From an uncultured candidatus Porisulfidus sp. (GTDB lineage: Bacteria; Pseudomonadota; Gammaproteobacteria; Poriferisulfidales; Poriferisulfidaceae): a DNA stretch of 64,000 nucleotides. Shown here in pieces: positions 1 to 44,054 of this stretch (its first letter is position 1; every line of letters begins with the position of its first letter). Both the position numbers and the translations under genes were made by a program. The notes beneath the pieces are model-generated. The model ran no database searches and was not told the origin of the DNA. It worked only from the letters and a program-made list of their open reading frames with translations. The stretch covers positions 64,001 to 128,000 of the forward strand of contig CBDASZ010000001.1 of NCBI GenBank assembly GCA_965199755.1. The letters run 5' to 3'.

Positions 1-1976
1 AGTTTGGCTCCGGCTGCGTCAAGATCACGCCAGCGCATGACTTCAACGACTATCAGGTCGGCCAACGTCACCAGTTGGAGTTGCTGAATATCTTCACTGA
101 TGACGCACATCTGAATGACACGGTGCCGTCAGCGTATCGCGGCCTGAGTCGGGAGGAAGCGCGCACGTGCGTGCTGGAAGATCTCGACGCGCAAGGCGCG
201 CTTGTGAAAACCGAAGCGCATCGGCTGATGATCCCGCGCGGCGATCGCAGCGGTGCCATCGTGGAGCCTTATCTGACCAATCAATGGTACGTCCGGGCGC
301 AGCCTCTGGCGGAACCGGCCATGGCGGCGGTGCGGGATGGCCGCATTCGTTTCGTGCCGGAAAACTGGAGCCGAACCTATTTCGACTGGATGAAAAACAT
401 CGAAGACTGGTGCATCAGCCGGCAGTTGTGGTGGGGACACCGCATTCCGGCCTGGTACGACGCCGACGGCACGCCCTACGTCGGGCGCACGGTCGAGGAG
501 GTACGCGAGCGCCACGAATTATCCGAAGAGATCGAACTGAGGCAGGATGAGGACGTGCTGGATACCTGGTTTTCTTCCGCGCTGTGGCCGTTCTCGACAC
601 TGGGCTGGCCGCAAGACACGGAAGCGTTGCGGCGGTTTTATCCGACCAGTACTTTGGTGACCGGCTTTGACATTATTTTCTTCTGGGTCGCGCGCATGAT
701 CATGATGGGCATGCACTTCGTCGGGGAGGTGCCGTTTCGCGAAGTCTATGTACACGGACTGGTGCGCGACGCGCACGGACAGAAGATGTCCAAATCCAAA
801 GGCAACACCATTGATCCGATTGATGCCATTGACGGCATTGAGCAAGATGCCCTGATCGCCAAGCGAATCGGCGATCTGATCGACCCACGCCAAAGCAAGG
901 CGGTGACGCGCAGTACGCGCCAGGAATTCCCGGACGGCTTCCCGGCCGCCGGCACCGATGCCCTGCGTTTCTGTTTCGCCACTCAGGCGACGTTCGGGCG
1001 TGATGTGCGCTTTGAACTCCCGCGCGTGCTCGGCTATCGCAACTTCTGCAACAAGTTATGGAACGCGGCACGCTTCGCCCTGCTGCAGACAGATATGCCG
1101 AACTCCGATGAGCTGGCGGAGCCGAGCCTGATTGATCGCTGGATCCGACACCGGATGCAGAGCGTGACGAATGAGACAACCGAGCATCTGGAAGCCTACC
1201 GCTTTGATCTGGCCGCGCAGACCCTGTACGACTTCGTCTGGCACGACTTCTGCGACTGGTACCTGGAGTTGAGCAAGGCACAATTGCAACCGGACGTCGC
1301 GCCTGGTATTCGTCAGCGCAGCCGCGCGACCGTCATGGAGACGCTGGAGAGCATTCTGCGTCTGCTGCACCCGTTTATTCCATTTATCACCGAGGAGTTG
1401 TATCAGCAGTTGCCAACAACGGACGGGAGTAAGGATACGTTTCTGATGCTGCAGGACTGGCCGCAGGCCGCCGCGGCTGAGGAAAACGCCGACGTGCTTG
1501 ACACCATCGCCTGGATGCAGGAATTTATCAGCGGCATTCGCCGCACGCGTGCGGAAATGAATGTGGCACCTGGACGCCCGGTGCCGGTGCTGCTGGAGGA
1601 CTGGAATGCCACAGATCAGCAGCGCTTCGAACAAACCGAGGTCTGGATCCAAAGTCTGGCGAAACCTGAATCAATCCACTGGGTGGCGGCGGGTGAACCC
1701 ATCCCGGACGCGGCCACGGCGCTGGTCGGCTCCATGCGCCTGTTGATTCCGATGGCGGATCTGATTGACCCCGATGCGGAGCGGCAGCGGCTGCAGAAAG
1801 AACTGAAGAAACTCGACGGCGTCCTGCAGACCGCGCGTGCGAAACTCGACAATCAGCAGTTTCTGGATCGCGCACCTGAAGCGGTGGTCGCCAAAGAAAA
1901 GCGCCGGCTGGAAGATACCGAAGCGGCACGCGCACAACTGGCGCAGCAGCTAGAGAAAATCGCCACGCTCGACTAG
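1..1976 (+). CDS. valS: Valine--tRNA ligase, 5' end outside the window
   Basis: Frame is open from the window edge (FGSGCVKITPAHDFND); DWCISRQLWWGHRIP, VLDTWFSS and KMSKS motifs; C-terminal coiled coil. Confidence 0.97.
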   Translation, partial: FGSGCVKITPAHDFNDYQVGQRHQLELLNIFTDDAHLNDTVPSAYRGLSREEARTCVLEDLDAQGALVKTEAHRLMIPRGDRSGAIVEPYLTNQWYVRAQPLAEPAMAAVRDGRIRFVPENWSRTYFDWMKNIEDWCISRQLWWGHRIPAWYDADGTPYVGRTVEEVRERHELSEEIELRQDEDVLDTWFSSALWPFSTLGWPQDTEALRRFYPTSTLVTGFDIIFFWVARMIMMGMHFVGEVPFREVYVHGLVRDAHGQKMSKSKGNTIDPIDAIDGIEQDALIAKRIGDLIDPRQSKAVTRSTRQEFPDGFPAAGTDALRFCFATQATFGRDVRFELPRVLGYRNFCNKLWNAARFALLQTDMPNSDELAEPSLIDRWIRHRMQSVTNETTEHLEAYRFDLAAQTLYDFVWHDFCDWYLELSKAQLQPDVAPGIRQRSRATVMETLESILRLLHPFIPFITEELYQQLPTTDGSKDTFLMLQDWPQAAAAEENADVLDTIAWMQEFISGIRRTRAEMNVAPGRPVPVLLEDWNATDQQRFEQTEVWIQSLAKPESIHWVAAGEPIPDAATALVGSMRLLIPMADLIDPDAERQRLQKELKKLDGVLQTARAKLDNQQFLDRAPEAVVAKEKRRLEDTEAARAQLAQQLEKIATLD

Positions 1977-1990
1977 GCGCGCGGGCGAGA

Positions 1991-3904
1991 TCAGATCAGG
2001 GTCAGACCCAGTACGCCTTCCATCTTCTCCGCAGTCTCGGACTTGCCGGTGCGGCTGTCGCCGACCAGAGCAATGGTGACATCCACTTCCGTCGGAGCTT
2101 CGTTCTCAAAGCGCGCGCGCTTCTCCAGCGCGATTTCCTTGACCAGTTCAATCAGACCCTCGGCCAGACGCTCCGGGGCGATCTGCTCGATTTCTTCTCG
2201 ATTAGCAAACCCGCAGCGCGTGACATCATCGTCGCTGGTCCCTTCATAGACCCCTGACATCAACTGGCTGTAGGCCACTCCGATGCGCATCTCTCTGCGC
2301 TCAATCAGTGCGTCGATGTCTTTGATGAAAGTCGCTTCAGTCTCGCTGAACAATTCGTACAGGTCTTCGTGCAGCACTTCGCCAGCATTGTCGACCAGCG
2401 TCGGGAACGGATTGGCCCAGTAACTGGACTCTTTCTTGCCGCGGTGCGTCTGGGTGCTGCCAGCCGCCACGCGCTCACCCTTGCGGAAGTGATCAAGCGC
2501 TTCCTGCGCGGTCATGTCGGTATCGATGGTCACGGCCCCTTCTTCCTTGATGTCGTAGTTATTCACATACAGCAAAACGTCCAGAATGCTGCCGGTCGCG
2601 ACCTCGGATTCCTCAGCCACCGGTACCACCTGACGGGCATTTGAGCCCATGTGGTTGTTGTAGCCGATCTCTCGCCCTTGCATGGCCAGTTTGGCTTGCT
2701 CGCTAAAGCCGTCCAGACAGGCGAATGCGCCGATTTCAGTGCCATAGAAGATGGGGCGGCGCAGCGTGGTGCCGTCAATGCGCTCCAGTGCCGCACGGCC
2801 CATGTCGTCAGCCTTCACCAGCATTTCCGTGATGTACGGCTCGTCGCCCTCAAAGTTGACGATGTAGCGGGTGCAACCGCAATGCAGCGGCAGATCGCCG
2901 CAGCGAATGGCCAGAACATTGTGCAAGGTCAAAATGGGTTTCTTGCAGTAGCCGAAATACTTGTACTCATCGTGATTCGGCACCATGCCAATCAGCAACT
3001 GGTTCTCTCGATCCCAGTAGTAGCCCAGATCTTCTCCGAACGTCGCGTTCGGGTCGCCGAAGAAATACAGACCGTCCGGGCGCAGCGCCGGAAACGCCTG
3101 CTCGACGTCGGCGAACGGAAACAGGTTCAGCAAGCCCGGCTCCATTTCAATGCAGCCACGCGACTTGTGGATGAATGCGATGATCAGCCAGCGGCCCACC
3201 TGTAGCGGCACCGACACCCAGTCCTCCGGGTTGAAGTGCTCCATGTGCAGCGGGTTGTGCGGCAGTTCGTAGAACGGATAGGCGCGGCGGTTGGCCGGTG
3301 TGCGGTAATCCACTCCGGTGCGAATATCCGCCGCCATCGTCAGCGGCACATGACACAGCAGACCGTAATCCGGCGGCATGTTGCAGTAGTGCCCGGAAAT
3401 CTCGCCGGCAGTCACGTTTGGCGAGGCGTCCATGCCGGGTGTGCGGCGTACGCCGTAACCTAAGCCGACCTGCGACAGCAGGCGGCGGCGCGTCTCCAGT
3501 ATCAGATCGGTCAACTCCGCGGCCTTCTCGGTGACCTTATCCTTGATGCTCTCCTGGTTTTCGGTGCCGGAACTGACCACTTCGTTCTGCAGGCGCACCA
3601 GACGCGAGTAACTCTTGTTGCGGAAATGGTGGAAGCCGCCGTCGACGAACTTAACTACGGAGCGGGCGCGTTCCAACTCCTCCGGCGCAAAATGATTGTT
3701 GTCAAGAATGGACGCAATGTCACGCAAAGTGATGTTGCGAATCATTTCCGCCTTGTGCTGGGCTTCCGACTGATTTTTCTCGCGGTGCAGCAAATCGGCG
3801 ACAAATTCTTCTTTGTAAATTTTCAGGTAGCGCGCAAAAGCAAGACTGCGAAGCAATTGCTCCGGCGTATTGCACCCATCACGAATCTCAAGAATACCTT
3901 CCAT
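1991..3904 (-). CDS. PEP carboxykinase-like P-loop protein with rearranged motif order
   Basis: Motifs YFGYCKKPILTLHN, LPLH, DDMG, YGTEIGAF, NAR, SYWANPF; Walker A GDSRTGKSE lies at the extreme C-terminus. Confidence 0.7.
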   Translation of the reverse strand: MEGILEIRDGCNTPEQLLRSLAFARYLKIYKEEFVADLLHREKNQSEAQHKAEMIRNITLRDIASILDNNHFAPEELERARSVVKFVDGGFHHFRNKSYSRLVRLQNEVVSSGTENQESIKDKVTEKAAELTDLILETRRRLLSQVGLGYGVRRTPGMDASPNVTAGEISGHYCNMPPDYGLLCHVPLTMAADIRTGVDYRTPANRRAYPFYELPHNPLHMEHFNPEDWVSVPLQVGRWLIIAFIHKSRGCIEMEPGLLNLFPFADVEQAFPALRPDGLYFFGDPNATFGEDLGYYWDRENQLLIGMVPNHDEYKYFGYCKKPILTLHNVLAIRCGDLPLHCGCTRYIVNFEGDEPYITEMLVKADDMGRAALERIDGTTLRRPIFYGTEIGAFACLDGFSEQAKLAMQGREIGYNNHMGSNARQVVPVAEESEVATGSILDVLLYVNNYDIKEEGAVTIDTDMTAQEALDHFRKGERVAAGSTQTHRGKKESSYWANPFPTLVDNAGEVLHEDLYELFSETEATFIKDIDALIERREMRIGVAYSQLMSGVYEGTSDDDVTRCGFANREEIEQIAPERLAEGLIELVKEIALEKRARFENEAPTEVDVTIALVGDSRTGKSETAEKMEGVLGLTLI

Positions 3905-4035
3905 TTAATAGCTCTCTACTGTCTCAGCAGTATCAAATACGGAAGCGCAATTTTACTCTATGGCATATATGCGGGTTATGACACCCGGAAAGCGAAGTAT
4001 TTTTGGGTGCGTGGCATCCGCGCCGCGCCGCTCAC

Positions 4036-5493
4036 TCAGGCGTGATGCGCTCCGGGGTCGTGCTCATACACCGGATGCGCTGTTTCTTCCTCGCTGAGAG
4101 TCATGCCCAGCATGCGCCCGACGAAATAGACCAGCAACCCGGTCGCAAATCCGCCCAGACCTTCGTAGAATCTGCCCAGCTGGGGCACCGTGAGCCACAG
4201 CAACACAAACACCGCGCCCGACAGCGCCATGGCGATCACCAGCGCCTGATTCGGTCGCCCGCCTAAAGAATAAACCAGCAGCAAGGGCGTAAATACCGAG
4301 CCCATCACAGACCACGCCATAATCACCAGAGAAAATACGCTTTTGCTCCCGGACAACGCGATACCGAGCGCGATGAGCGTGATGATGACGGTGCCGGTTC
4401 GCACCACAATCAGCGGCAGACGATCGCTCGGAACCAGATCATCAGTCAGGTTGGCCGCGCTGCTGAGGATCAGTGAGTCGGCGGTCGAAATCGTGGCCGC
4501 AAAAATACCCGCCAGCACTATCCCGACCAGAACCGGTGGAAGCAGGTCAACCGAAATGGTCGCCAGGGCCAGTTCGGCGTCAAACAGGACATCCGGCGGC
4601 AGCAGCACGCGCGTCATCAGACCCACGGCCATGGCCACACAATTGAAAGTGAGCGACCAGCCATAGTAATAGGCGCGCGCTTTATTGATGTTCTTCACGT
4701 CATCCAGAGCCATGAAGCGCACCATGATGTGCGGCTGGCCGGGCGTACAGAACCCGCCTATGAACCAGCCGCCTGCGAACAGCACCGGTCCCCAGGCACC
4801 AAACGGAAGATCCGGCTGGAACCAGTCCATGTGCGTTGGAGAGACCGCTTCAAGGCGCTCCCATGCCGCTGCCACACCACCGAGCGCATCGAAAGCCATG
4901 TACACCAGCAACAACATCGACAGCATCATGATGATGGACTGCAGCGCATCCGTCCAGATGGACGCGCGCAAACCGCCGCCCCAGCAATAACTGATGATGA
5001 TGGCCGCACCAATGACGGCACCAACATACGTCTCCCAGCCAAACAACACATGCAGCGCCTTGCTGCCAGCCACAAACTGCGCAGCCGCGTAGGTGCACAG
5101 GAAAATCAGTGAGATAAATCCGGCGATATGCCGGTAGAGCCGAAAATCCGTGTTGTTCCAGTGACTGAGCACGCCGACGAAGGTCTCGGCGCGTCCGGGC
5201 GAAGTCGCACTGCGCAGACGCCGGTGAATAATGGTGGATGCCATGTAATCGCCAAACGTCCAGCCGATGACCAGCCAGAAGGTCGGCAAGCCGACCAGAT
5301 AGGAAAATCCGATCAGCCCGGTGAACATGAAGCCGCTGTTGCAGGTCGCGCCTGCTGACAAGCCAGCCAGCCACGGTGCGGTATCCTGATTCGACAGCAG
5401 ATAGTCTCGATGCGTGTGGCGGGAATGCAACCGAGCGGTGAACCCGACTAGCAAGAACAGCCCAAGAAAGAACAGGAACGAAGCGACAATCAT
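4036..5493 (-). CDS. Sodium:solute symporter (PutP-like, proline)
   Basis: 485-aa polytopic membrane protein with GGLRASIWTD, GQPHIMVRFMA and AATISTADS SSS motifs. Confidence 0.88.
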   Translation of the reverse strand: MIVASFLFFLGLFLLVGFTARLHSRHTHRDYLLSNQDTAPWLAGLSAGATCNSGFMFTGLIGFSYLVGLPTFWLVIGWTFGDYMASTIIHRRLRSATSPGRAETFVGVLSHWNNTDFRLYRHIAGFISLIFLCTYAAAQFVAGSKALHVLFGWETYVGAVIGAAIIISYCWGGGLRASIWTDALQSIIMMLSMLLLVYMAFDALGGVAAAWERLEAVSPTHMDWFQPDLPFGAWGPVLFAGGWFIGGFCTPGQPHIMVRFMALDDVKNINKARAYYYGWSLTFNCVAMAVGLMTRVLLPPDVLFDAELALATISVDLLPPVLVGIVLAGIFAATISTADSLILSSAANLTDDLVPSDRLPLIVVRTGTVIITLIALGIALSGSKSVFSLVIMAWSVMGSVFTPLLLVYSLGGRPNQALVIAMALSGAVFVLLWLTVPQLGRFYEGLGGFATGLLVYFVGRMLGMTLSEEETAHPVYEHDPGAHHA

Positions 5494-5796: not shown

Positions 5797-7131
5797 CTAC
5801 TTTCCGATACAAAATCTTGAGAAAATCTCGCCCAAAAGATTCTCATTGCTAAACTCCCCGGTGACGCGCGAGAGCGCCTGCTGCGCGAGGCGCAATTCTT
5901 CCGCGATCAACTCACCTCCCTGCGCCTGTCTCGCGCGCTGCAAAGCCTCGCGCATTTCGCTGAAGGCCGCGTACTGGCGCTGGCTTACCATAAACTCATC
6001 TTCTTCCAGCCCTTCTTCGAGCAGCAGCGCCGCGCCGATGCGTTGCGTGAGTTCCGGGATGCCCTCACCAGTCTTCGCGGACACGCGGCACACCTCCTGC
6101 GGACCGGAAATGGAAGCGTCATCTTCTAACAAGTCGCATTTGTTCGCGAGCACCAGCGCCGGACAATCTGCCGGCAACTGCTGTGTAATGGCTTCGTCTG
6201 CTTGACCCCAGCCCACTGCGGCATCGAAGACCTGCAGGATCAGATCCGCTTCAGACGCCATCTGCCAGCTGCGGCGGACACCTTCGGCTTCCGCCTCACC
6301 TTCGGTGTCCCGAATCCCCGCGGTGTCCAGCAGACGCACCGCAATGCCATTGAACTGCAACGGCGCGACCAGCACATCGCGAGTGGTCCCCGCTTGCGTC
6401 GTGACAATCGCCGTCTCATCGCCAGTGAAATGATTGAGCAGACTAGACTTGCCAGCGTTCGGCGGCCCCAGCAATACCAAAGACACGCCCGCGCTGACCG
6501 TGCGCCCCTGTTGGGCGCGCTGCAATAGACGCTCGGCGCTGTCACACACCGCATCCAATGGCTCACGCACGCCACCTTCCGCCAGCCAGTCCACATCCTC
6601 GTCCGGGAAGTCCAGCGCTCCTTCAACATAGACGCGAATATCTACAATTTGCTGCAAGATAATGCTTATTTCCTGTGAAATATCGCCTTTTAGCACTCTT
6701 GCCGCGCATTTTGCCGCACGTTCAGAGGTCGCGGCGATCAGATCCGCGATGGCCTGCGCCTGATTCAAGTCACACTTGCCCGCTTCAAAGCCGCGACGGC
6801 TGAACTCGCCTGGTTCCGCCGGCCGCGCGCCGAGGTTCTGTATCTGCCGCAATAGCGACTGCACCACCGCCGGCGCGCCATGACAGGAAATCTCCAGCAC
6901 ATCCTCACCGGTCGCCGAGGCCGGAGCCGGATAGAACGTTAGCACCCCCTGATCAAGCGCATTGCCACTTTCATCGTGCAGCATCCGCAGGCAGGCATAG
7001 CGTGGTGGCGGCATCTCGCCGCAGAAATGCTGTGCCAGATTTGAAGATTCGGGACCGCTGATGCGAATCACCGCCAGCGCACCCCGCCCAGGCGGAGTGG
7101 ACAATGCGACGATCGTGTCGCCGGCCATCAC
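5797..7131 (-). CDS. mnmE: tRNA modification GTPase MnmE
   Basis: DTIVALSTPPG, GPPNAGKSS, GTTRD, DTAG, NKCD, terminal FCIGK. Confidence 0.97.
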   Translation of the reverse strand: MMAGDTIVALSTPPGRGALAVIRISGPESSNLAQHFCGEMPPPRYACLRMLHDESGNALDQGVLTFYPAPASATGEDVLEISCHGAPAVVQSLLRQIQNLGARPAEPGEFSRRGFEAGKCDLNQAQAIADLIAATSERAAKCAARVLKGDISQEISIILQQIVDIRVYVEGALDFPDEDVDWLAEGGVREPLDAVCDSAERLLQRAQQGRTVSAGVSLVLLGPPNAGKSSLLNHFTGDETAIVTTQAGTTRDVLVAPLQFNGIAVRLLDTAGIRDTEGEAEAEGVRRSWQMASEADLILQVFDAAVGWGQADEAITQQLPADCPALVLANKCDLLEDDASISGPQEVCRVSAKTGEGIPELTQRIGAALLLEEGLEEDEFMVSQRQYAAFSEMREALQRARQAQGGELIAEELRLAQQALSRVTGEFSNENLLGEIFSRFCIGK

Positions 7132-7144
7132 GCAACCGCAGCCG

Positions 7145-8854
7145 TCAGGCTTGCATGCTCCGAATGATGTACCACTGCTGGGCGATCGACAGGATGTTAT
7201 TGGCCAGCCAGTACAGCACCAGACCCGCGGGGAAGAACAGGAAGAACACGGTGAAGACGATGGGCATCGCCATCATCAGCTTGGCTTGAAAGGGATCCGG
7301 CGGCGTCGGGTTGAGTTTGGTCTGCACAATCATGCTCGCGCCCATCAACACAGGCAGCACGTAATACGGATCGCGCACCGACAAGTCGGCAATCCAGCCG
7401 ATAAACGGTGCCTGACGCAATTCCACGCTTTCCAGCAGCACCCAGTACAGCGCGATGAACACCGGGATCTGCACCAGAATCGGCCAGCAGCCACCGAGCG
7501 GGTTGACCTTTTCCTCCCGGTACATTTTCATCATCGCCTCGTTCATTTTCTGGCGATCACCGGAATAGCGATCGCGCAGTTGCTGGACGCGCGGCGCGAA
7601 CTTGCGCATCTTCGCCATGGAACGATAGCTTTTCTCTGAAAGCTTGTAAAACACCAGTTTGATGAGCAGGGTCAGAAAGATAATCGACCAGCCCCAGTTG
7701 CCCAGCACCGAATACAGGTGATCCATCACCCAGAACAGCGGCTTGGACAGTACGGTCAGAATGCCGTAATCGACGGTCAGATCCAGTCCGTCGGCTACCT
7801 CCTCGAGCACGTTTTGTTCTTTCGGGCCGATGTACAGGAGCGACTCGAAACGGGCGCTTCCGCCCGGTGTGACGCGCTGCGCCGGTGAGTGCAGGCCAAT
7901 GATGTATTCCGGGTAGCGATCGGTGCGCACCACGCGCGTGTAATAGTGCTCTACAGATTCAGTATCCGGCACCCAGGCGGAGACAAAATAATGCTGCAGC
8001 ATGGCCACCCAGCCACCACTAAGGTCCGCAGACAAGGGCTGCTCGGAGACATCCTCAAAAGATAGTTTGTGGTAGGTGTTGGTGTCGAAGTAGGCCGCGC
8101 CGCGAAACGAGATCGCCTCGGTGTTGCCAAACAACAGTGAGGCCCGGCCCGGTTCTCTGCCGCTGCTGCGGCGCAACTGTCGATACTGGCGGCCGACCCA
8201 TTCCTCGTTGCCGTCGTTGCGAACTTCATGGGCGACTTCCACCAGATGACTGCCTGGAGTGAAGCGAAAATGCTTGAGCACCTGCACGCCATCCTCACTC
8301 TCCCAGCGCAAACTCACTTGTTGCGGCCGGTCAGAATCGCTGAAGTCATACTCCGTGCGATCGCTGCGATATTCGGCATGGTGGCTGGGCGCGCGATGGC
8401 GCTGATCCTGTCCGTCGCTGAGGTCGTGCGTCAATCCACTTTGTGCGACGTAGTTCTCACCGCCCACATACATCAGGCGGGTAGGGTTGTCTGGCTCATC
8501 CAGCGATACCGGATACTTCAGCAGATCAACTTGCACAACGCTGCCGCCGCGGGTGTCGAGATACATGTCCAGCACATCAGTGCGCACCCGAACCTGCGTC
8601 GAACGCGACGCAAAGTCAGGCGTCTGGCCGGGCACATCGGTTGCTCTCGGAGCCGCCTGTCTGGCTTTAGGCATATCGTCGCTCGGCGTTGGTTCCGCGC
8701 GGGCCGAGGACGGAGGGCTGTCAGGTGACGTCGACGTGGCGGCCGGCGGCACTTCGGTGATTTGCGGCGGCATCTGTTCCAGCTCCCAGGTCTGCCACAC
8801 CAGAAACAGCAGGATGCCCAGCGCGCCGTACAAAAACAGGCGGGAATCAACCAT
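7145..8854 (-). CDS. yidC: Membrane protein insertase YidC
   Basis: [23 protein letters not shown]; position in the rpmH-rnpA-yidD-yidC-mnmE cluster; start taken at MVDSRL. Confidence 0.96.
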
Positions 8855-9095
8855 GCGACTGCTCCCGCTCCGGCACCGGGTCATATCCACCTTCACGCCA
8901 CGGATGACAGCGCGACAAGCGGCGCAAGCTCAGCACTATGCCGCGCCAAGGCCCATGCTCGCGCAAGGCCTCAATAGCATATTGAGAGCAGGTCGGCGTG
9001 AACCGGCAGTGCTGGCCCAGAAAAGGGCTGAGCGTGTACTGGTACACGCGAATCAGGGCAATCAGGATTCTGCTCACGGGCCTATCTTGCGCCAC
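8847..9095 (-). CDS. yidD: Membrane protein insertion efficiency factor YidD
   Basis: [11 protein letters not shown] and RCHPW..GG.DPVP motifs. Confidence 0.95.
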
Positions 9096-9454
9096 AAGTG
9101 CTCAAGATCGGCACGCACGGCCCGACGATCCAGCGGCTGGCGGACGCCATGACGGCAACCGACGATCAGATCTACGCCGACGGGCGGGTCCAGGCGAAAG
9201 CACTCGCGCACCAGTCGCTTGAACAGATTGCGCGCCACACTTCGAGACAGCGCGCGCTTCGAGACCGCAAGTCCCAGACGCGCATGCGGCAAGCCATTGG
9301 CCACCCAGAGACAGTAAGCAAAACGCCCTTGGGCGCGTTTGACATCACGGTGGCGGTGAACATGCTGGAACTGGCGCGGCTGAGTCAGCCGGAGATGGCG
9401 CGTAAAGCAGTGTCGCCCAGAGCGCTCCTGAGGCTCAGGGACAGAGTCGCGCAC
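9074..9454 (-). CDS. rnpA: Ribonuclease P protein component (start uncertain)
   Basis: [22 protein letters not shown] motif; lies between rpmH and yidD. Confidence 0.88.
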
Positions 9455-16470: not shown

Positions 16471-19269
16471 ATGCCCAGTGCGGCCAATGCCATGCCGCAG
16501 TGGGGCGACATTGTTGACCGCAAGCTTCGGCGAAGGGTCAAGCTTCTCGGTCGCCTGCTCGGCAGAATTCTGAAAGAACACGCCCCCGCACCGGTGTATC
16601 CGGCGGTAGAGCAGTTGCGGGTGGGCTTTGTTCGCCTGCAGCGCCAGAAGCATCCGATGCTGCGCAGCACCTTGATGCGCAAGATTGATGAACTGGAACC
16701 CGATCTGACCAGTCAGGTCGTACGCGCCTATTCCACCTACTTCAGTCTGGTCAACGTCGCCGAAGAGGTCGCGCTTCTGGACTGGCGGAAAAAAATCCTG
16801 CGCGAACATAAGGACGGCTCGCTATGGTCAGGTTCCTTTGATCACACCCTGCGCCTGATCAAGGAGCGCGGCTACAGCGGCGAAGAAGCGCGCGAAGCAT
16901 TGCAGGACTTGTGCTACATGCCGGTATTTACGGCGCATCCAACTGAAGCGAAGCGCCGCGTGATTCTGGAGACACTGCGACGTATTTTCCTGCTACTGCC
17001 GCAGACTGACGATCTCTCGCTGGGGCCGATTGTCCGGGAAGAAGCGACCGGAAAATTGCTGGCGGAAATTCAGGCCCTGTGGAAAACCGACGAAGTCCGC
17101 CCTGGCAGCACCACTGTGCACTCCGAGATCGCCAATGGCCTGCATTACTTTGAGGCCTCGCTGTTCTCCTCTATCCCGCGCATCTACCGCAACCTTGAGC
17201 GCGCCTGGAATATGGTGTACCCGGACACGCCTTGTGACGTGACAAGTTTTGTGCGCTTCGGCTCATGGATCGGCGGCGATCGCGACGGCAATCCTCATGT
17301 CACCGCGCGCGTCACCCGCACCGCTTATCACATGCAGGCGCGCACCATCCTGAACGAATACTTGCGGCGGGTGCGGGAACTTGAACATATCCTCACGCTG
17401 TCTTCCAAATTCATTGAACTGCCTCAAGCGATACGTGACAGCCTCAAGGAGGATGAACCGCTGCTCGCGCATATCGCGCCACGGCGCGCGGCCACACTGT
17501 TCGAGACCGAGCCCTACCGGCGCAAACTGGCCATCATTCTGTACCGGCTGCAGAAACGGCTGGAACAACTGGACGGACGAACTCTGAAAGACGAAGGCGG
17601 CTATCGCGACGAACAGGAATACCTGCGCGATCTGTATCTGATTCGCGATGCGCTGATTGAGCAGGGCGATGCCCGCATCGCCCAAGGGGAACTCACCGAT
17701 CTGATTCGACTGGCCGAGACCTTCGGGTTTTATCTGGTGCAGCTGGACCTACGTCAGGAAGCGCCGCGTCATACGCAGGCGGTTGCCGAAATTCTGCGTG
17801 CGACAGAAGACGTGGACTACAACAGCCTGAACGAGACCGCCCGCTTGCGGCTGTTGCGCCAGCACCTGCAAAACGCCCAAGGCCCCCGTGAACTCGCGCG
17901 CGAATCACTGTCGCCAGCTACCCGCGAGACACTGGAAGTGTTCGATCTTTTTGGCTTGGCACCGCAGCGCATCAGCTCACAGGCTTTCGGTCAGTACGTG
18001 GTCTCCATGACGCATACAGCAAGCCACGTCCTGGAAGTGCTGTTTCTCGGCAGTCTGATCGGACTGGCCGGCCGCGACGGCAAGCACTGGTTCTGCCGCC
18101 TGCAGGTCTGTCCGCTGTTCGAGACTATTGATGACCTCAATCAGGCTGGCGACATTCTGGAGACCCTGTTCCGCGATCCGACCTATCGCGCCTTGCTCAA
18201 CGCCGGCGGCGGACAGCAGGACATCATGCTGGGATATTCCGATTCCTGCAAGGACGGCGGCATTCTGGCCTCCGCCTGGAATTTGTACCTCGCACAAAAG
18301 CGCATCCATGAGGTGGCGGCTGAGCGCAACATCGCTTTTCGCCTGTTTCATGGCCGCGGCGGCACCATTGGCCGCGGTGGCGGACCGACCCATGATGCCA
18401 TTGTCGCTCAGCCGCACGGCACCGTGCATGGCACCATCAAATTGACCGAGCAGGGCGAGGTGCTGTCCTACAAATACTCGAATCTGGAGACCGCCGTCTA
18501 CGAACTCACCATGGGTATGACCGGCTTGATGCTGGCGTCCTTTCGCGATCCGCACGCCCGGCTGAAAGAGACTGCCGATGATCTGAAGGTGATGGAGTTA
18601 CTGGCGCGCACCGGTGAGCAGTGCTATCGGGATTTGATCGGCACGAAAGGATTCCTGGACTATTTCTATGAGGTCACGCCGGTACAGGAGATCGGCGGCG
18701 TGAATATTGGCTCGCGCCCCTCGCACCGGCGTGCCGCCGACCGTTCCATGGATTCAATCCGAGCCATTCCCTGGGTATTCTCCTGGTCCTTGTCACGCCA
18801 CACATTGCCTGCCTGGTACGGCATCGGCACCGCGCTTGAGACGTTCCTCAACAACAGCCCAAAAACCGGTCTGCAGCGCGTCCAGCATATGTATCAGCGC
18901 TGGCCGTTCTTCCGCACCCTGATGCTCAACATTCAAATGGCGCTGGCCAAAGCGGACATGCCCATCGCCCAGCAATACGCCACACTATACGAACATCCAG
19001 ACGCAGCGGACTTCTTCGCGCGCATTGAGGCCGAATACCAGTTGACCTGCAAGATGGTCTTGCGCGTGACGGGCAACAAGGAATTACTGGAAACGCAGCA
19101 GAATTTGTTGCTGTCGCTCAATCGCAGAAAGCCTTATCTGGACCCGCTCAACGCCATTCAGGTCAGCCTGCTGCGTCGCACCAAGCAGGGCGAGGGTTCC
19201 GAGGCGGTGCAACTCGCCACAGCGCGCTCAATCAGTGCGATTGCCGCCGGAATGCGCAATACAGGCTGA
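16471..19269 (+). CDS. ppc: Phosphoenolpyruvate carboxylase (start 16471 or 16492)
   Basis: VFTAHPTE, GSWIGGDRDGNP, MLGYSDSCKDGG, FHGRGGTIGRGG, terminal MRNTG. Confidence 0.97.
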   Translation: MPSAANAMPQWGDIVDRKLRRRVKLLGRLLGRILKEHAPAPVYPAVEQLRVGFVRLQRQKHPMLRSTLMRKIDELEPDLTSQVVRAYSTYFSLVNVAEEVALLDWRKKILREHKDGSLWSGSFDHTLRLIKERGYSGEEAREALQDLCYMPVFTAHPTEAKRRVILETLRRIFLLLPQTDDLSLGPIVREEATGKLLAEIQALWKTDEVRPGSTTVHSEIANGLHYFEASLFSSIPRIYRNLERAWNMVYPDTPCDVTSFVRFGSWIGGDRDGNPHVTARVTRTAYHMQARTILNEYLRRVRELEHILTLSSKFIELPQAIRDSLKEDEPLLAHIAPRRAATLFETEPYRRKLAIILYRLQKRLEQLDGRTLKDEGGYRDEQEYLRDLYLIRDALIEQGDARIAQGELTDLIRLAETFGFYLVQLDLRQEAPRHTQAVAEILRATEDVDYNSLNETARLRLLRQHLQNAQGPRELARESLSPATRETLEVFDLFGLAPQRISSQAFGQYVVSMTHTASHVLEVLFLGSLIGLAGRDGKHWFCRLQVCPLFETIDDLNQAGDILETLFRDPTYRALLNAGGGQQDIMLGYSDSCKDGGILASAWNLYLAQKRIHEVAAERNIAFRLFHGRGGTIGRGGGPTHDAIVAQPHGTVHGTIKLTEQGEVLSYKYSNLETAVYELTMGMTGLMLASFRDPHARLKETADDLKVMELLARTGEQCYRDLIGTKGFLDYFYEVTPVQEIGGVNIGSRPSHRRAADRSMDSIRAIPWVFSWSLSRHTLPAWYGIGTALETFLNNSPKTGLQRVQHMYQRWPFFRTLMLNIQMALAKADMPIAQQYATLYEHPDAADFFARIEAEYQLTCKMVLRVTGNKELLETQQNLLLSLNRRKPYLDPLNAIQVSLLRRTKQGEGSEAVQLATARSISAIAAGMRNTG

Positions 19270-41762: not shown

Positions 41763-42200
41763 ATGATATTTCCAAACATTTACACCGATCCTTTCGGTGC
41801 CTTAACCCGAAACTGGGGTACGCTGTTTCAGGGTACCCCTTCTGGCCTGTATTCGTCCGGGAACGGCTGGACGGTGCTGGTCGACATTGCCGACCACAGC
41901 GATGCCTACACGATTACCGCCGACTTGCCGGGAGTGAACCCCGATGATGTCACAATCTCGGTGGATGGCGATATCCTGAAAGTCACGGGCGAGCGTGCCA
42001 CTCCGAAAGCGACCGCTGATGAGGGGCCGCGCTACTACCACATGGAGCGAGGGCACGGTGCCTTTGAGCGGCGCTTCCAGTTGCCTGCGAACGTTGATGC
42101 GGACGCGATTGAGGCGCACTTTAACAAGGGCGTTTTGAGCATCCGAATCGCCAAGCAGCCTGAGGCTGCGCCGCGGAGTATCACGGTTCAGGTCAACTGA
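41763..42200 (+). CDS. Hsp20/alpha-crystallin small heat shock protein
   Basis: ADLPGV, ERGHGAFERRFQLP, GVLSI.I.K. Confidence 0.93.
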   Translation: MIFPNIYTDPFGALTRNWGTLFQGTPSGLYSSGNGWTVLVDIADHSDAYTITADLPGVNPDDVTISVDGDILKVTGERATPKATADEGPRYYHMERGHGAFERRFQLPANVDADAIEAHFNKGVLSIRIAKQPEAAPRSITVQVN

Positions 42201-42220
42201 TCGGCATACCTACCTGCCTG

Positions 42221-42256
42221 CGGGCTCGTCGAAGCGATTCGGCGAGCCCGTTTTTT
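42221..42256 (+). terminator. Rho-independent terminator after hsp20
   Basis: cgggctcgtcgaa-gcga-ttcggcgagcccg followed by T6. Confidence 0.9.
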
Positions 42257-42402
42257 GTGAGAAACTCAATGACGTAAATATGCGCCCTATCAACCCAGAA
42301 CTGCTCACTGACTATGATATATTTCCAGCAATAACTCCAAGAACAGTACTAGCCCTTAGTTTGATGTTCGACACCGCTAAATCCGACCCAAACTTAACAG
42401 GA

Positions 42403-42813
42403 TCACTTTATGAGAATCGCAAACCTTTCCTGTTCGAAGTGATGATCGCTTGATAGAACCTCTTCTATGGAGTTCTCCTCCATGACAATCATGGAAATAC
42501 AGTCTTGCATGCTATATTTCTTGTCAGGCCGTTCCTTGTAACGTTTTAAACCTTTCATTAGAAGATCGTGGGTTTGCGGAACAACCCTGACGTTTGCATC
42601 TTCAAAAACGTTTTGTACTATCTTCACTCCATACTCGCGCAAGTCAGAGCCGAGATTTGAAAGGCCGGTCAGAAACTCTACCAGCACCGTCTCAGTAGTC
42701 ATCACCTTAACCTGTCCCAAGGCAGCGAATGCCTGCTCCGCCGCTTTATGCCATTGATCTTGGGGGTTGGCGATGGCGACCCAATATGAAGTATCTGCGA
42801 AAACAGTTTTCAC
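42403..42813 (-). CDS. vapC: PIN-domain (VapC-type) ribonuclease toxin
   Basis: VFADTSYW, VLVE, YSMQDCIS, SSDHHF acidic PIN motifs. Confidence 0.88.
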   Translation of the reverse strand: MKTVFADTSYWVAIANPQDQWHKAAEQAFAALGQVKVMTTETVLVEFLTGLSNLGSDLREYGVKIVQNVFEDANVRVVPQTHDLLMKGLKRYKERPDKKYSMQDCISMIVMEENSIEEVLSSDHHFEQERFAILIK

Positions 42814-43721
42814 ACTTTGTCAGTTCCATAGATGTAATGGTCATGCTGGTGTGACAAATCTGTAGGCACTTTCTCCCATGCCTTCTCAGGAACTTTCTTG
42901 GAAAGATCCAAGACAACATCCTGAATACTGGGAACGTTAGGATCAAAACTGTCTCCTCCGGCAGGCTCAATTTTCAGCCACTCTACATTGTTAATTCTTT
43001 TTAGTGCTCCGTCCGGACCATACTCTCCGCACCCTCTAACGCGCAACTGTACAGACGCATAACCTATGAGCGCTTTGATGACGTCTGACTCTTGAGTGTC
43101 CGAGAACTCCACCTGCACATTCACTTTATCGTCTAACCAAATGTGAAAACATTTTCTGTGAACATCCACCACCAATACGCGACCAGTTATTTCCAACTCA
43201 TCTATATACGCGCTCCCTGAAGATTCAGCGAATCTTTGGCGCGCCTTCGAAGAAACAGGTGTCATTTCCTGATCAGGCGGTGCCAACTGCATCTCCGCGT
43301 CATCTGGCAACTTTTTCCCTAGCGGCACTAAATGAGACAGCATTTCTTTCGTGATGCCTTTAGGAAAAAGTTTCTCATTTTCAGCGGATTTAAGTGCTTG
43401 GTAGATCAAAGAGACCGACTCATCCACCAGCTCATGGTCTTCAAAAATCTCGCGTTGCCCCGAATTATCTCGCATTAATTCAAATGGAATAGTAGTGCTT
43501 CCCACTTCAATTCTCTTAATGACAAGTTTGGTGTGCTCATCAAAACTTTTAGGCAAGCGATCAGAGCCCGGATGGCGTCTCTTCCAGACAATCTTCGCCA
43601 TCTCCGAGACAATTTTCTGAAATCGCATCAGTTCTTCGAGGGCGCACGAATCAAGTGCACACTCGTCGTAGTGCGCGCCCTTAAAACGCAAGCACGCAAC
43701 TTCTCGCTTTTGATCGCTCAT
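42810..43721 (-). CDS. Uncharacterised 303-aa protein with C-terminal antitoxin-like peptide
   Basis: Clean low-GC ORF; ends PTDLSHQHDHYIYG; 4-bp GTGA overlap with the PIN gene. Confidence 0.75.
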   Translation of the reverse strand: MSDQKREVACLRFKGAHYDECALDSCALEELMRFQKIVSEMAKIVWKRRHPGSDRLPKSFDEHTKLVIKRIEVGSTTIPFELMRDNSGQREIFEDHELVDESVSLIYQALKSAENEKLFPKGITKEMLSHLVPLGKKLPDDAEMQLAPPDQEMTPVSSKARQRFAESSGSAYIDELEITGRVLVVDVHRKCFHIWLDDKVNVQVEFSDTQESDVIKALIGYASVQLRVRGCGEYGPDGALKRINNVEWLKIEPAGGDSFDPNVPSIQDVVLDLSKKVPEKAWEKVPTDLSHQHDHYIYGTDKV

Positions 43722-43977
43722 GATATAAACTCCATAAGGCGTAAGGCTTTGAGTTCCAGGAACATCTATAAGCCAACATTAACCTTGGATAGAGCATAAG
43801 ATTATATACAAGAGAGGGAAGTCCTGCGTGTGAAATTGCCGAAAAAATTAATAATAGATAGACTCTTCCAGAGTATTCTTTTTGCAGAAGATTATTCTGC
43901 AAAAGTCAACAGAAAAGACTGCGTGTTAAGAATTAAATCTCCCTCATCCCGTAAAATGGCGTCCCAATTCCCGGTAT

Positions 43978-44054
43978 CGGAGTGTAGCTCAGCCTGGTAG
44001 AGCGCTGCCTTCGGGAGGCAGAGGCCGGAGGTTCAAGTCCTCTCACTCCGACCA
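43978..44054 (+). tRNA. tRNA-Pro (CGG)
   Basis: CGGAGTG/CACTCCG acceptor stem, anticodon arm ctgcc-ttCGGga-ggcag, GTTCAAG T-loop, encoded CCA. Confidence 0.96.

Follow-up and report, generated by a model that had tools for sequence, protein, structure and literature searches.

The window analysed here is a stretch of 64,000 nucleotides from contig CBDASZ010000001.1 of an uncultured ‘Candidatus Porisulfidus’ species; it contains on its minus strand (1991..3904) a single long open reading frame (ORF) with an ATG start, encoding a protein of 637 amino acids, P0001, followed by a stop codon. Our analysis confirms the reported sequence arrangement and supports the reading of this protein as an enzyme of the phosphoenolpyruvate carboxykinase (PEPCK) superfamily whose nucleotide-binding element has been permuted, non-circularly and throughout the family, in that the strand-Walker A-helix segment has left the interior of the chain and lies at its extreme C-terminus. 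The protein belongs to an uncharacterised, strongly conserved family that occurs chiefly in sulfur-oxidising Gammaproteobacteria and in which an additional helical domain precedes the PEPCK fold. Taken as a whole, and leaving the substrate aside, this structural and evolutionary reading is held with good confidence.

A preliminary description of the window had listed eight motifs of the protein in a given order, a short interval between LPLH and DDMG that lacks a P-loop, and a Walker A motif, GDSRTGKS, at 2039-2062. The translation of P0001 carries all eight motifs in that order. The interval (LHCGCTRYIVNFEGDEPYITEMLVKADDMG, residues 340-369) has no P-loop, residues 342-365 being free of any glycine-rich loop, and the ORF coordinates place GDSRTGKS exactly at the positions given, within the C-terminal segment VTIALVGDSRTGKSETAEKMEGVL (residues 609-632). 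The tail helix is followed by five residues and then by the stop codon at 1991-1993.

Two architectures are found among the homologues. A word-indexed protein search returned 383 matches at E<=0.001, and the best 120 of them, which were examined, are all full-length (~637 amino acids), 62-84% identical to P0001 and ‘hypothetical’ where labelled; in all 120 the P-loop is solely C-terminal. An exhaustive HMMER search of 50%-identity representatives gave 246 matches at E<=0.001, of which the best 150 were analysed, 75 being at least 500 amino acids long and the other 75 shorter fragments. Among the long representatives, 61 of 75 have an internal G-D-S-x-x-G-K-S-E motif 15-40 residues upstream of DDM, seven (P0121-P0127, 41-55% identical to P0001) have a P-loop only at the C-terminus (<=30 residues from the end), five are without a P-loop, and two have one in another relation to the motifs. 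Eight of the 75 fragments end shortly past a P-loop; P0210, among these eight, has the look of an internal type cut short. A search with the divergent member P0125 led back to the gammaproteobacterial family and brought up neither new names nor intermediate forms.

How the two types are related is shown by an alignment of 94 sequences (A2), 39 of the C-terminal and 55 of the internal type. Both align from the N-terminal region through the helix ‘GP..AA..L..I’, with one clean ~24-residue indel at the internal site, where the internal type carries a block (e.g., ANVIIIGDSGAGKSETLEAFRILA) between the His strand and the Asp-Asp (DD) strand. The internal type ends directly after the last shared helix, just before the tail begins, and the C-terminal type runs on for ~40 residues, ending in V-T-I-A-L-V-G-D-S-R-T-G-K-S-E-T-A-E-K-M-E-G. 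P0001 carries the defining traits of the C-terminal-P-loop clade, namely no P-loop between LPxH and DDM, and GDSR.GKSE ~23 residues from the C-terminus. The internal type constitutes a sister family of ~550-600 amino acids (e.g., P0134, P0136, P0145), homologous over its full length, with 21-28% identity and the same invariant residues; in AlphaFold2 (AF2) models its secondary-structure order is that of P0001 except for the moved element, since it runs from the His strand through the P-loop strand and helix, with an internal GDSGAGKSE, to the DD strand. The ~580-residue family with this order that the preliminary description had named is thus real, together with its consensus, as the 61 of 75 representatives and A2 attest, but its assignment mostly to Firmicutes is not borne out, the commonest phyla of three sister-family clusters in the ESM Atlas being Bacteroidota, Bacillota and Chloroflexota. 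Public names are almost missing from the sister family, one member being labelled phosphoenolpyruvate carboxykinase and another EcfA2, and its best score against the Pfam family PEPCK_ATP stays just under the threshold (at most 24.1 vs. 26.5 bits).

In the history that these alignments suggest, the ancestral state would be the one shared by PEPCK, HPr kinase/phosphorylase (HprK/P) and the sister family, in which strand, Walker A and helix are flanked by the strand of the catalytic His on one side and that of Asp-Asp on the other. An element of ~24 residues would have been removed from the internal site, leaving a tight hairpin, and a homologous copy would have come to stand at the extreme C-terminus; the route may have been a duplication of the segment to the 3' end, followed by loss of the internal copy.

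That the tail is this missing element, and not any Walker A sequence, is indicated by its specificity. A hidden Markov model (HMM) of the 31-residue internal segment, built from 55 internal-type proteins, was run against the 20,390 stop-to-stop six-frame ORFs of at least 40 amino acids in the window's own genome. The tail of P0001 (residues 609-626) ranks first at 22.3 bits (E 5.7e-5), and the runner-up, an ABC-type P-loop, reaches 11.0 bits; the resemblance of the tail to the missing block is thus a specific one. These figures also bear on an independent gain, in which the ancestral P-loop was lost and an unrelated P-loop fragment was later acquired at the C-terminus. A motif as short as Walker A can arise repeatedly by convergence, and no two-element intermediate occurs among the best 150 of 246 representatives, yet the tail has the entire strand-GDS..GKSE-helix signature of the internal segment, scores double the bits of any other P-loop in the genome, and an enzyme devoid of a P-loop would be an inactive intermediate. 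We regard such a gain as very unlikely, and a permutation that retains a functional P-loop in the tail as something to be held with high confidence.

Within the tail, P-loop position 4 (R618, window 2051-2053) is always Arg in the C-terminal type (81/81 genes; P0121-P0127), and in the internal type it is Gly, with one exception seen, P0186 (GDSRAGKSE). Perhaps R618 makes a contact that compensates for the shift of the loop.

The arrangement is conserved throughout the clade. The genome from which the window derives (1,389,004 bases, 98.9% complete) shares the intact gene with all 15 same-genus genomes (15/15; 1.2-2.0 Mb), where it has no internal stops, and with 10/12 members of a neighbouring family (0.9-1.2 Mb), whereas a third family gave no match in any of 12 genomes. 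Among species-representative genomes a scan located 191 loci, the best 80 of which, going by record titles, stem from ‘Candidatus Porisulfidus’, other Gammaproteobacteria of sulfur-oxidiser type and a few metagenome-assembled genomes labelled Burkholderiales/Betaproteobacteria. In these 80 plus the window gene (81/81), GDSRTGKSET is unchanged and the P-loop motif stands 23 residues from the C-terminus. Since 2-5 synonymous codons are used per position, i.e., synonymous change is saturated, the invariance of the motif implies strong purifying selection on the tail. In a FastTree phylogeny of 379 core columns (query positions 160-597, at least 80% occupancy, P-loop block and tail excluded), the C-terminal type (39 sequences) and the internal type (55) part without exception, with a support of 1.0, which fits one single event; because PEPCK, HprK/P and the sister family are all internal, the C-terminal order is most simply the derived one, and the change appears to have run from internal to C-terminal.

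An artefact such as a misassembly, a frameshift or a chimeric contig is ruled out for practical purposes. In a different study, two runs yielded contigs that cover 1800-4100 unbroken, with 1 and 4 substitutions and no indel, which excludes misassembly, and the 81/81 genes and the 15 stop-free genomes point the same way. The ORF is intact, as had been claimed at the outset, and homologues with the identical order, which had been proposed as a check, are plentiful (120/120 closest and 81/81 species-level genes). The preliminary description had also held that closest relatives with a C-terminal P-loop would speak against its case; such relatives exist, and they refute a recent or one-off event as well as a misassembly, but the change of topology itself stands, as an old and clade-wide one.

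Three members of the wider family are worth recording. P0122 (637 amino acids, C-terminal type) has 35 Trp, 23 of them opposite Gly of P0001 (e.g., WDSRTWKSE); this is the pattern expected when a gene with TGA=Gly (code 25) is translated with TGA=Trp, and the C-terminal-type family is probably also present in a code-25 lineage such as Gracilibacteria or Absconditabacteria. P0267 (2170 amino acids) contains an internal-type domain with GDSGAGKSE at ~1547, hence the PEPCK-like module is also fused into multidomain proteins. P0093 is publicly labelled ‘NAD-specific glutamate dehydrogenase, large form’, a name for which we find no support here and which looks like a mis-annotation.

Membership in the PEPCK superfamily becomes evident at the level of the fold. 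The AF2 model of P0001, built on A2, has a mean predicted local distance difference test score (pLDDT) of 92.4 and a predicted template modelling score (pTM) of 0.91. In a Foldseek search of the PDB every top match is a PEPCK, the best being E. coli Pck (6v2m, E 3.6e-11, probability 1.00), at template modelling (TM) scores of just 0.35-0.43 for the PEPCK matches. Comparison of the models with 48,161 representative chains by VIA-align gave T. cruzi ATP-PEPCK for P0001 (1ii2_B, Z 14.0, root-mean-square deviation (rmsd) 3.4, 329 residues aligned, model residues 187-591, i.e., starting right after the N-terminal helical domain); further clear matches are GTP-PEPCK (Z 12.0), a Euglena complex-I subunit (Z 11.3) and pyrophosphate (PPi)-dependent PEPCK (Z 11.2), with the next row at Z 4.9. 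The sister model P0134 (pLDDT 94.7) matches 1ii2_B at Z 19.0 with 352 residues aligned, and the 23 extra residues correspond to the strand-P-loop-helix, as would be expected if this element, which a sequential aligner cannot place in P0001, made up the whole structural difference that it sees. On these models, P0001 has the two-domain PEPCK fold and belongs to the PEPCK superfamily at fold level. One superfamily trait is missing from its usual place: between the His and DD strands, where the Walker A motif is otherwise located, P0001 has a plain hairpin (342-365), and its Walker A stands at 615-622.

Sequence comparison reaches this kinship only faintly. P0001 has no match to PEPCK_ATP (PF01293; gathering score 26.5 bits) at E<=10, and phmmer against PDB sequences gave two chance-level rows only (E 0.8); the two-family profile against PDB sequences retrieved mostly generic P-loop matches, with PEPCK 1j3b at just E 0.036. 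Compared with PckA (PF01293; 1ii2, 6v2m), the two-domain fold is matched, and residues equivalent to Y207, G209, K212/K213, H232 and R333, to the DD pair and to the Walker A Lys/Ser-Thr have been kept; P0001 differs by ~186 extra N-terminal residues, by the C-terminal Walker A and by a sequence identity of 12-13%. The sister model also has globin-like matches in its N-terminal helical domain (Z 5-6.7), and the P0001 model has integrase-like ones (Z 4.6-4.9); both lie in a range common for helical domains. The Euglena match, PDB 8j9h chain E2, is a subunit of the Euglena gracilis respiratory complex I; its Z of 11.3 and 14.3 to the P0001 and P0134 models is within the range of true PEPCKs, and it may be a PEPCK-fold accessory subunit.

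For the relocated element to work, it would have to return to the active site, and this is where the models place it. In the AF2 model the tail of P0001 forms a strand (606-614), a loop and a helix (621-632), with block pLDDT of 93, 92 and 80, and since the tail strand is flanked in sequence by helices only, it must pair with strands of the body. The hairpin that bridges the former internal site is modelled as strands 338-352 and 355-365. A complex prediction in which the body (1-600) and the tail (601-637) were supplied as separate chains, together with ATP and Mg, gave an ipSAE of 0.93 in each of three runs, compared with 0.00 for the best of three controls; in calibration, the mark was reached by 58/80 solved complexes and by 2/110 mismatched pairs, counts that are only rough here given that our own alignments and small molecules were included. 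At least 86% of the contacts agree between runs, and partner pLDDT is at least 76. Tail residues 609-614 run antiparallel to 342-347 (constant i+j; 346-610, 344-612) and parallel to 441-446 (constant i-j; 442-610, 444-612, 446-614), with an expected error of 0.3-0.4 Å for both sets of contacts, and the interface also takes in 363-367 (the DD strand, with D366/D367) and 577-600 (the preceding helix). In the sister model P0134 the P-loop strand (367-373) follows the His strand (351-362) after a four-residue turn and therefore forms an antiparallel hairpin with it; by the hairpin arithmetic, His and the first Gly/Asp of GDS face each other in P0001 (341+615 = 956) as in P0134 (~354+374/375). The tail is thus predicted to take up its ancestral place again, next to the strands of His and DD. 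The C-terminal strand would re-enter the nucleotide-binding sheet at its centre, with the His341 strand as its antiparallel and 441-446 as its parallel neighbour, bringing K621/S622 beside K321/K322, H341, D366/D367 and R424 and so rebuilding an ordinary PEPCK-type active site. Docking beside DDMG in this sheet had been named as a structural check by the preliminary description, and at the level of prediction it came out positive.

The same body/tail model brings up a donor-strand arrangement, in which the tail would insert into a neighbouring subunit, making the enzyme an obligate oligomer with active sites shared between chains. Without its tail, the body has a gap between 342-347 and 441-446 where a central strand is missing, and a separate chain of 37 residues fills this gap (0.93 vs. 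0.00), so that complementation in trans is sterically possible; moreover, HprK/P is an oligomer. However, the tail also packs along its own preceding helix (577-600), and the eight-residue linker 598-605 suffices for insertion in cis in the AF2 monomer (pTM 0.91). Donation between subunits is thus unlikely, and docking in cis at the ancestral slot, as modelled, is probable. A related and equally unlikely conjecture starts from the central strand being the last part of the chain to be synthesised: the body would fold as an open, strand-deficient sheet which is completed only by insertion of the tail, and this insertion could occur in a neighbouring subunit, by donor-strand complementation as in pilus subunits, or be reversible. 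If true, the cell could switch on a metabolic enzyme through insertion of the enzyme's own P-loop; P-loop enzymes would thereby gain a new principle of regulation or assembly, and the protein would be a natural split, self-complementing kinase. The permutation itself, i.e., one internal element now C-terminal without circular permutation, in what looks like a functional gene, as originally proposed, is supported jointly by the alignment, the HMM specificity, the AF2 models, the fold searches and the body/tail model.

With regard to the reaction, the catalytic residues were compared by aligning the two-family and the C-terminal-type profiles with E. coli K-12 pck using hhalign. The two-family profile (probability 92.1%, E 6.2e-7, 238 columns) pairs DYFGYxKK with W-Y-G-G-E-M-K-K (Y207, G209, K212, K213), LPxHGA with S-M-H-C-S-A (H232), GDSGAGKSE with GLSGTGKTT, and NAR-x-I-x-P-V with N-T-R-V-S-Y-P-I (R333); the KK, His and NAR pairings are unchanged with the C-terminal-type profile. 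Across the 94 sequences, Y316, G318, K321, D366, D367, N422 and R424 are invariant, D366, D367 and M368 being unchanged in both families, and K322 and H341 are nearly so. The aligned Pck residues are presumably important, in keeping with the mutant names in the PDB titles of the Foldseek matches. D366/D367 would be the counterpart of the Pck pair D268/D269, and, as far as alignment can tell, the C-terminal type has the PEPCK catalytic set (Y-x-G-x-x-K-K, His, Asp-Asp and the Arg of N-x-R). From these PEPCK-specific residues we infer a nucleotide-dependent, metal-assisted phosphoryl transfer on an oxaloacetate/phosphoenolpyruvate (PEP)-like substrate.

Profile searches of the window's own genome found no PEPCK_ATP (PF01293), PEPCK_GTP (PF00821), PPDK_N (PF01326; PpsA/PPDK), malic enzyme (PF00390) or Hpr_kinase_C (PF07475), and did find pyruvate kinase and two PEP carboxylases (PF00311, 958 and 756 bits) at window 16471-19269 (+) and at G000:C3:3316-5874. 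Two PEP carboxylase matches occur in 14/15 other same-genus genomes, and one in the remaining genome (G009). Over 41 relatives the counts are 0/41 for PEPCK_ATP, 1/41 each for PEPCK_GTP, PPDK_N and malic enzyme, and 39/41 for PEP carboxylase. The known C4-to-C3 routes thus appear to be missing from this 98.9%-complete, 1.39-Mb genome and, with no canonical PEPCK, PpsA/PPDK or malic enzyme, P0001, whose gene is the sole PEPCK-like one there, would be the only recognisable candidate for a C4-to-PEP step. A true PEPCK reaction is nevertheless put forward tentatively, as the conserved residues would allow it, and we give it rather less than even credence.

Nearly an even prospect is given to another chemistry on the same architecture, namely that of a kinase/phosphorylase acting on another small molecule or on a protein, in the manner of HprK/P. 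HprK/P has a Walker A of the G.S..GKSE type followed by an acidic pair, and GDS..GKSE resembles this signature. Its C-terminal domain (PF07475; 1jb1, 1ko7) is a PEPCK-like nucleotide-binding domain, as in P0001, and the fold searches include HprK chains (Z 4.3, rmsd 5.1, 122 aligned for the HprK C-terminal domain with P0001; Z 8.9, rmsd 3.1, 135 aligned for 1jb1_A with the sister model P0134). The extra ~186-residue N-terminal domain, which PEPCK lacks, also counts for this reading, as does the fact that genomes devoid of the gene need no replacement. On the other hand, the counterparts of the PEPCK-specific Y207, K212/K213, H232 and R333 vary hardly or not at all, the match covers the entire two-domain PEPCK core (Z 14.0, 187-591) beyond the HprK-like half, and PF07475 matches neither P0001 nor anything else in its genome. 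Unlike P0001, HprK consists of the C-domain only, has its P-loop internally and acts on a protein substrate.

Several observations weigh against the reading of P0001 as a permuted PEPCK-like enzyme, or against parts of it. Pfam-A and NCBIfam scans of P0001 returned nothing at E<=10. The C-terminal-type profile by itself aligns weakly with E. coli Pck (probability 7.7%, E 0.0045), and hhalign sets DDMG on the nearby WDDDG of Pck, not on D268/D269. Proteins with both P-loops are absent from the best 150 of the 246 representatives, which makes the route by duplication and loss conjectural. With regard to docking, the site is predicted from contact lists and secondary-structure strings of two predictors, the two chains of the complex model are pieces of one polypeptide, and, P-loop sheets being abundant in solved structures, the score may partly be a memory of the fold; further, the monomer model is equally compatible with insertion in cis and with donation to a neighbouring subunit. 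The proposed substrate is argued from conserved residues and from no other line of evidence. No conserved neighbour beyond close kin was seen across 80 loci, and hence no function is drawn from the neighbourhood. Finally, the third family, in which the gene is missing (0/12), is also without PEPCK, PpsA/PPDK and, in 11/12, malic enzyme, so that there is no complementary distribution; as these gene-less genomes lack the alternatives too, the distribution speaks neither for nor against a PEPCK role.

Non-circular changes of topology between clearly homologous natural enzymes are rarely documented. The listings and abstract openings returned by full-text literature searches contain nothing on this family, on a C-terminal relocation of Walker A in a PEPCK-like enzyme, or on any such non-circular change that involves a Walker A element; non-cyclic permutations are treated as a general, rare class in PMC2096629. 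What distinguishes the present family is an unusually clean case, with sisters alignable end to end, exact indel boundaries, a single origin and strong purifying selection on the moved element.

Two known systems also have a phosphate-binding element at an unusual position in the chain, as in P0001. Circularly permuted GTPases (RsgA/YjeQ and YlqF type) are true circular permutations of the G motifs and, unlike these, the family of P0001 moved one internal element and left the remaining order unchanged. Trimeric dUTPases have a P-loop-like element, motif V, at the C-terminus; it is an arm, flexible and rich in glycine, that closes over the active site, in contrast to the tail of P0001, which is modelled as a sheet-embedded strand-Walker A-helix.

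The pair of families is a natural test of how far the order of secondary structures in a catalytic sheet can be rewired and of whether strand-P-loop-helix units are portable modules, and it could serve as a template for engineering split or self-complementing kinases. It further draws attention to a widespread family outside Pfam/NCBIfam coverage that is retained in sulfur-oxidiser genomes of 0.9-2.0 Mb. If P0001 were a real carboxykinase, it would add the C4-to-C3 step that is now lacking from metabolic models of these symbionts.

Table 1. Features of the gene and of its product P0001, with residue numbers, window coordinates and the basis of each assignment.
Feature	Residues	Window position	Strand	Basis or remark
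Whole coding sequence, PEPCK-like protein with C-terminal Walker A element	637 amino acids + stop	1991..3904	-
Extra N-terminal domain, mostly helical, outside PEPCK	1-186	3347..3904	-	AF2 secondary structure
CNTPEQLL	11-18			inside N-terminal helical domain
PEPCK-like core (N-domain and nucleotide-binding domain), common to the internal-P-loop sister family	187-597	2114..3346	-
YFGYCKKPILTLHN	316-329			translation
YFGYCKK	316-322	2939..2959	-	hhalign onto E. coli Pck Y207-G209-K212-K213
LPLH	338-341	2882..2893	-	H341 aligned to E. coli Pck H232
Short beta-hairpin, His strand directly to DD strand; strand-P-loop-helix missing here	342-365	2810..2881	-
DDMG, probable counterpart of the Pck D268/D269 metal-binding pair	366-369	2798..2809	-	suggested by the fold
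YGTEIGAF	387-394			translation
NAR	422-424	2633..2641	-	aligned to Pck NTR motif with R333
Strand LDVLLY, second neighbour of the tail strand	441-446	2567..2584	-	aligned to Pck ‘VIFLTAD’ strand
YVNNY	446-450			translation
SYWANPF	494-500			translation
Helix, last element common to the sister family, packs on the tail	569-597	2114..2200	-	alignment and AF2
Linker from last shared helix to tail strand	598-605	2090..2113	-	AF2 secondary structure
Tail beta-strand EVDVTIALV	606-614	2063..2089	-	AF2 strand 606-614, block pLDDT 93-92
Walker A / P-loop GDSRTGKS	615-622	2039..2062	-	translation
Tail helix KSETAEKMEGVL	621-632	2009..2044	-	AF2 helix 621-632

In the window, the gene is convergent to valS (3..1976, +) and lies downstream of an ORF for a membrane protein of 485 amino acids (4036..5493, -). 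A convergent valS is found downstream in 20/80 loci, and gltB-like and dnaG-like genes occur upstream, mainly in the same genus. A scan for promoters and terminators stayed at chance level for the former and gave no convincing terminator for the gene. Two RNA-library runs (X6, X7) contain five pieces of 204-291 nucleotides that cover parts of the gene and are identical to the window; as such libraries can hold DNA, these pieces do not establish transcription, and nothing follows from the stretches they leave uncovered.

Elsewhere in the window, the stretch 42001-44000 has a GC content of 0.469, compared with 0.56-0.64 in the remainder, and may be an island or a cluster of RNA genes. At 5797-9100 (-), mnmE-like (444 amino acids) and yidC-like (583 amino acids) ORFs are followed by a small yidD-like ORF, as judged by translation alone; mnmE, yidC and yidD make up the usual origin-proximal gene cluster.

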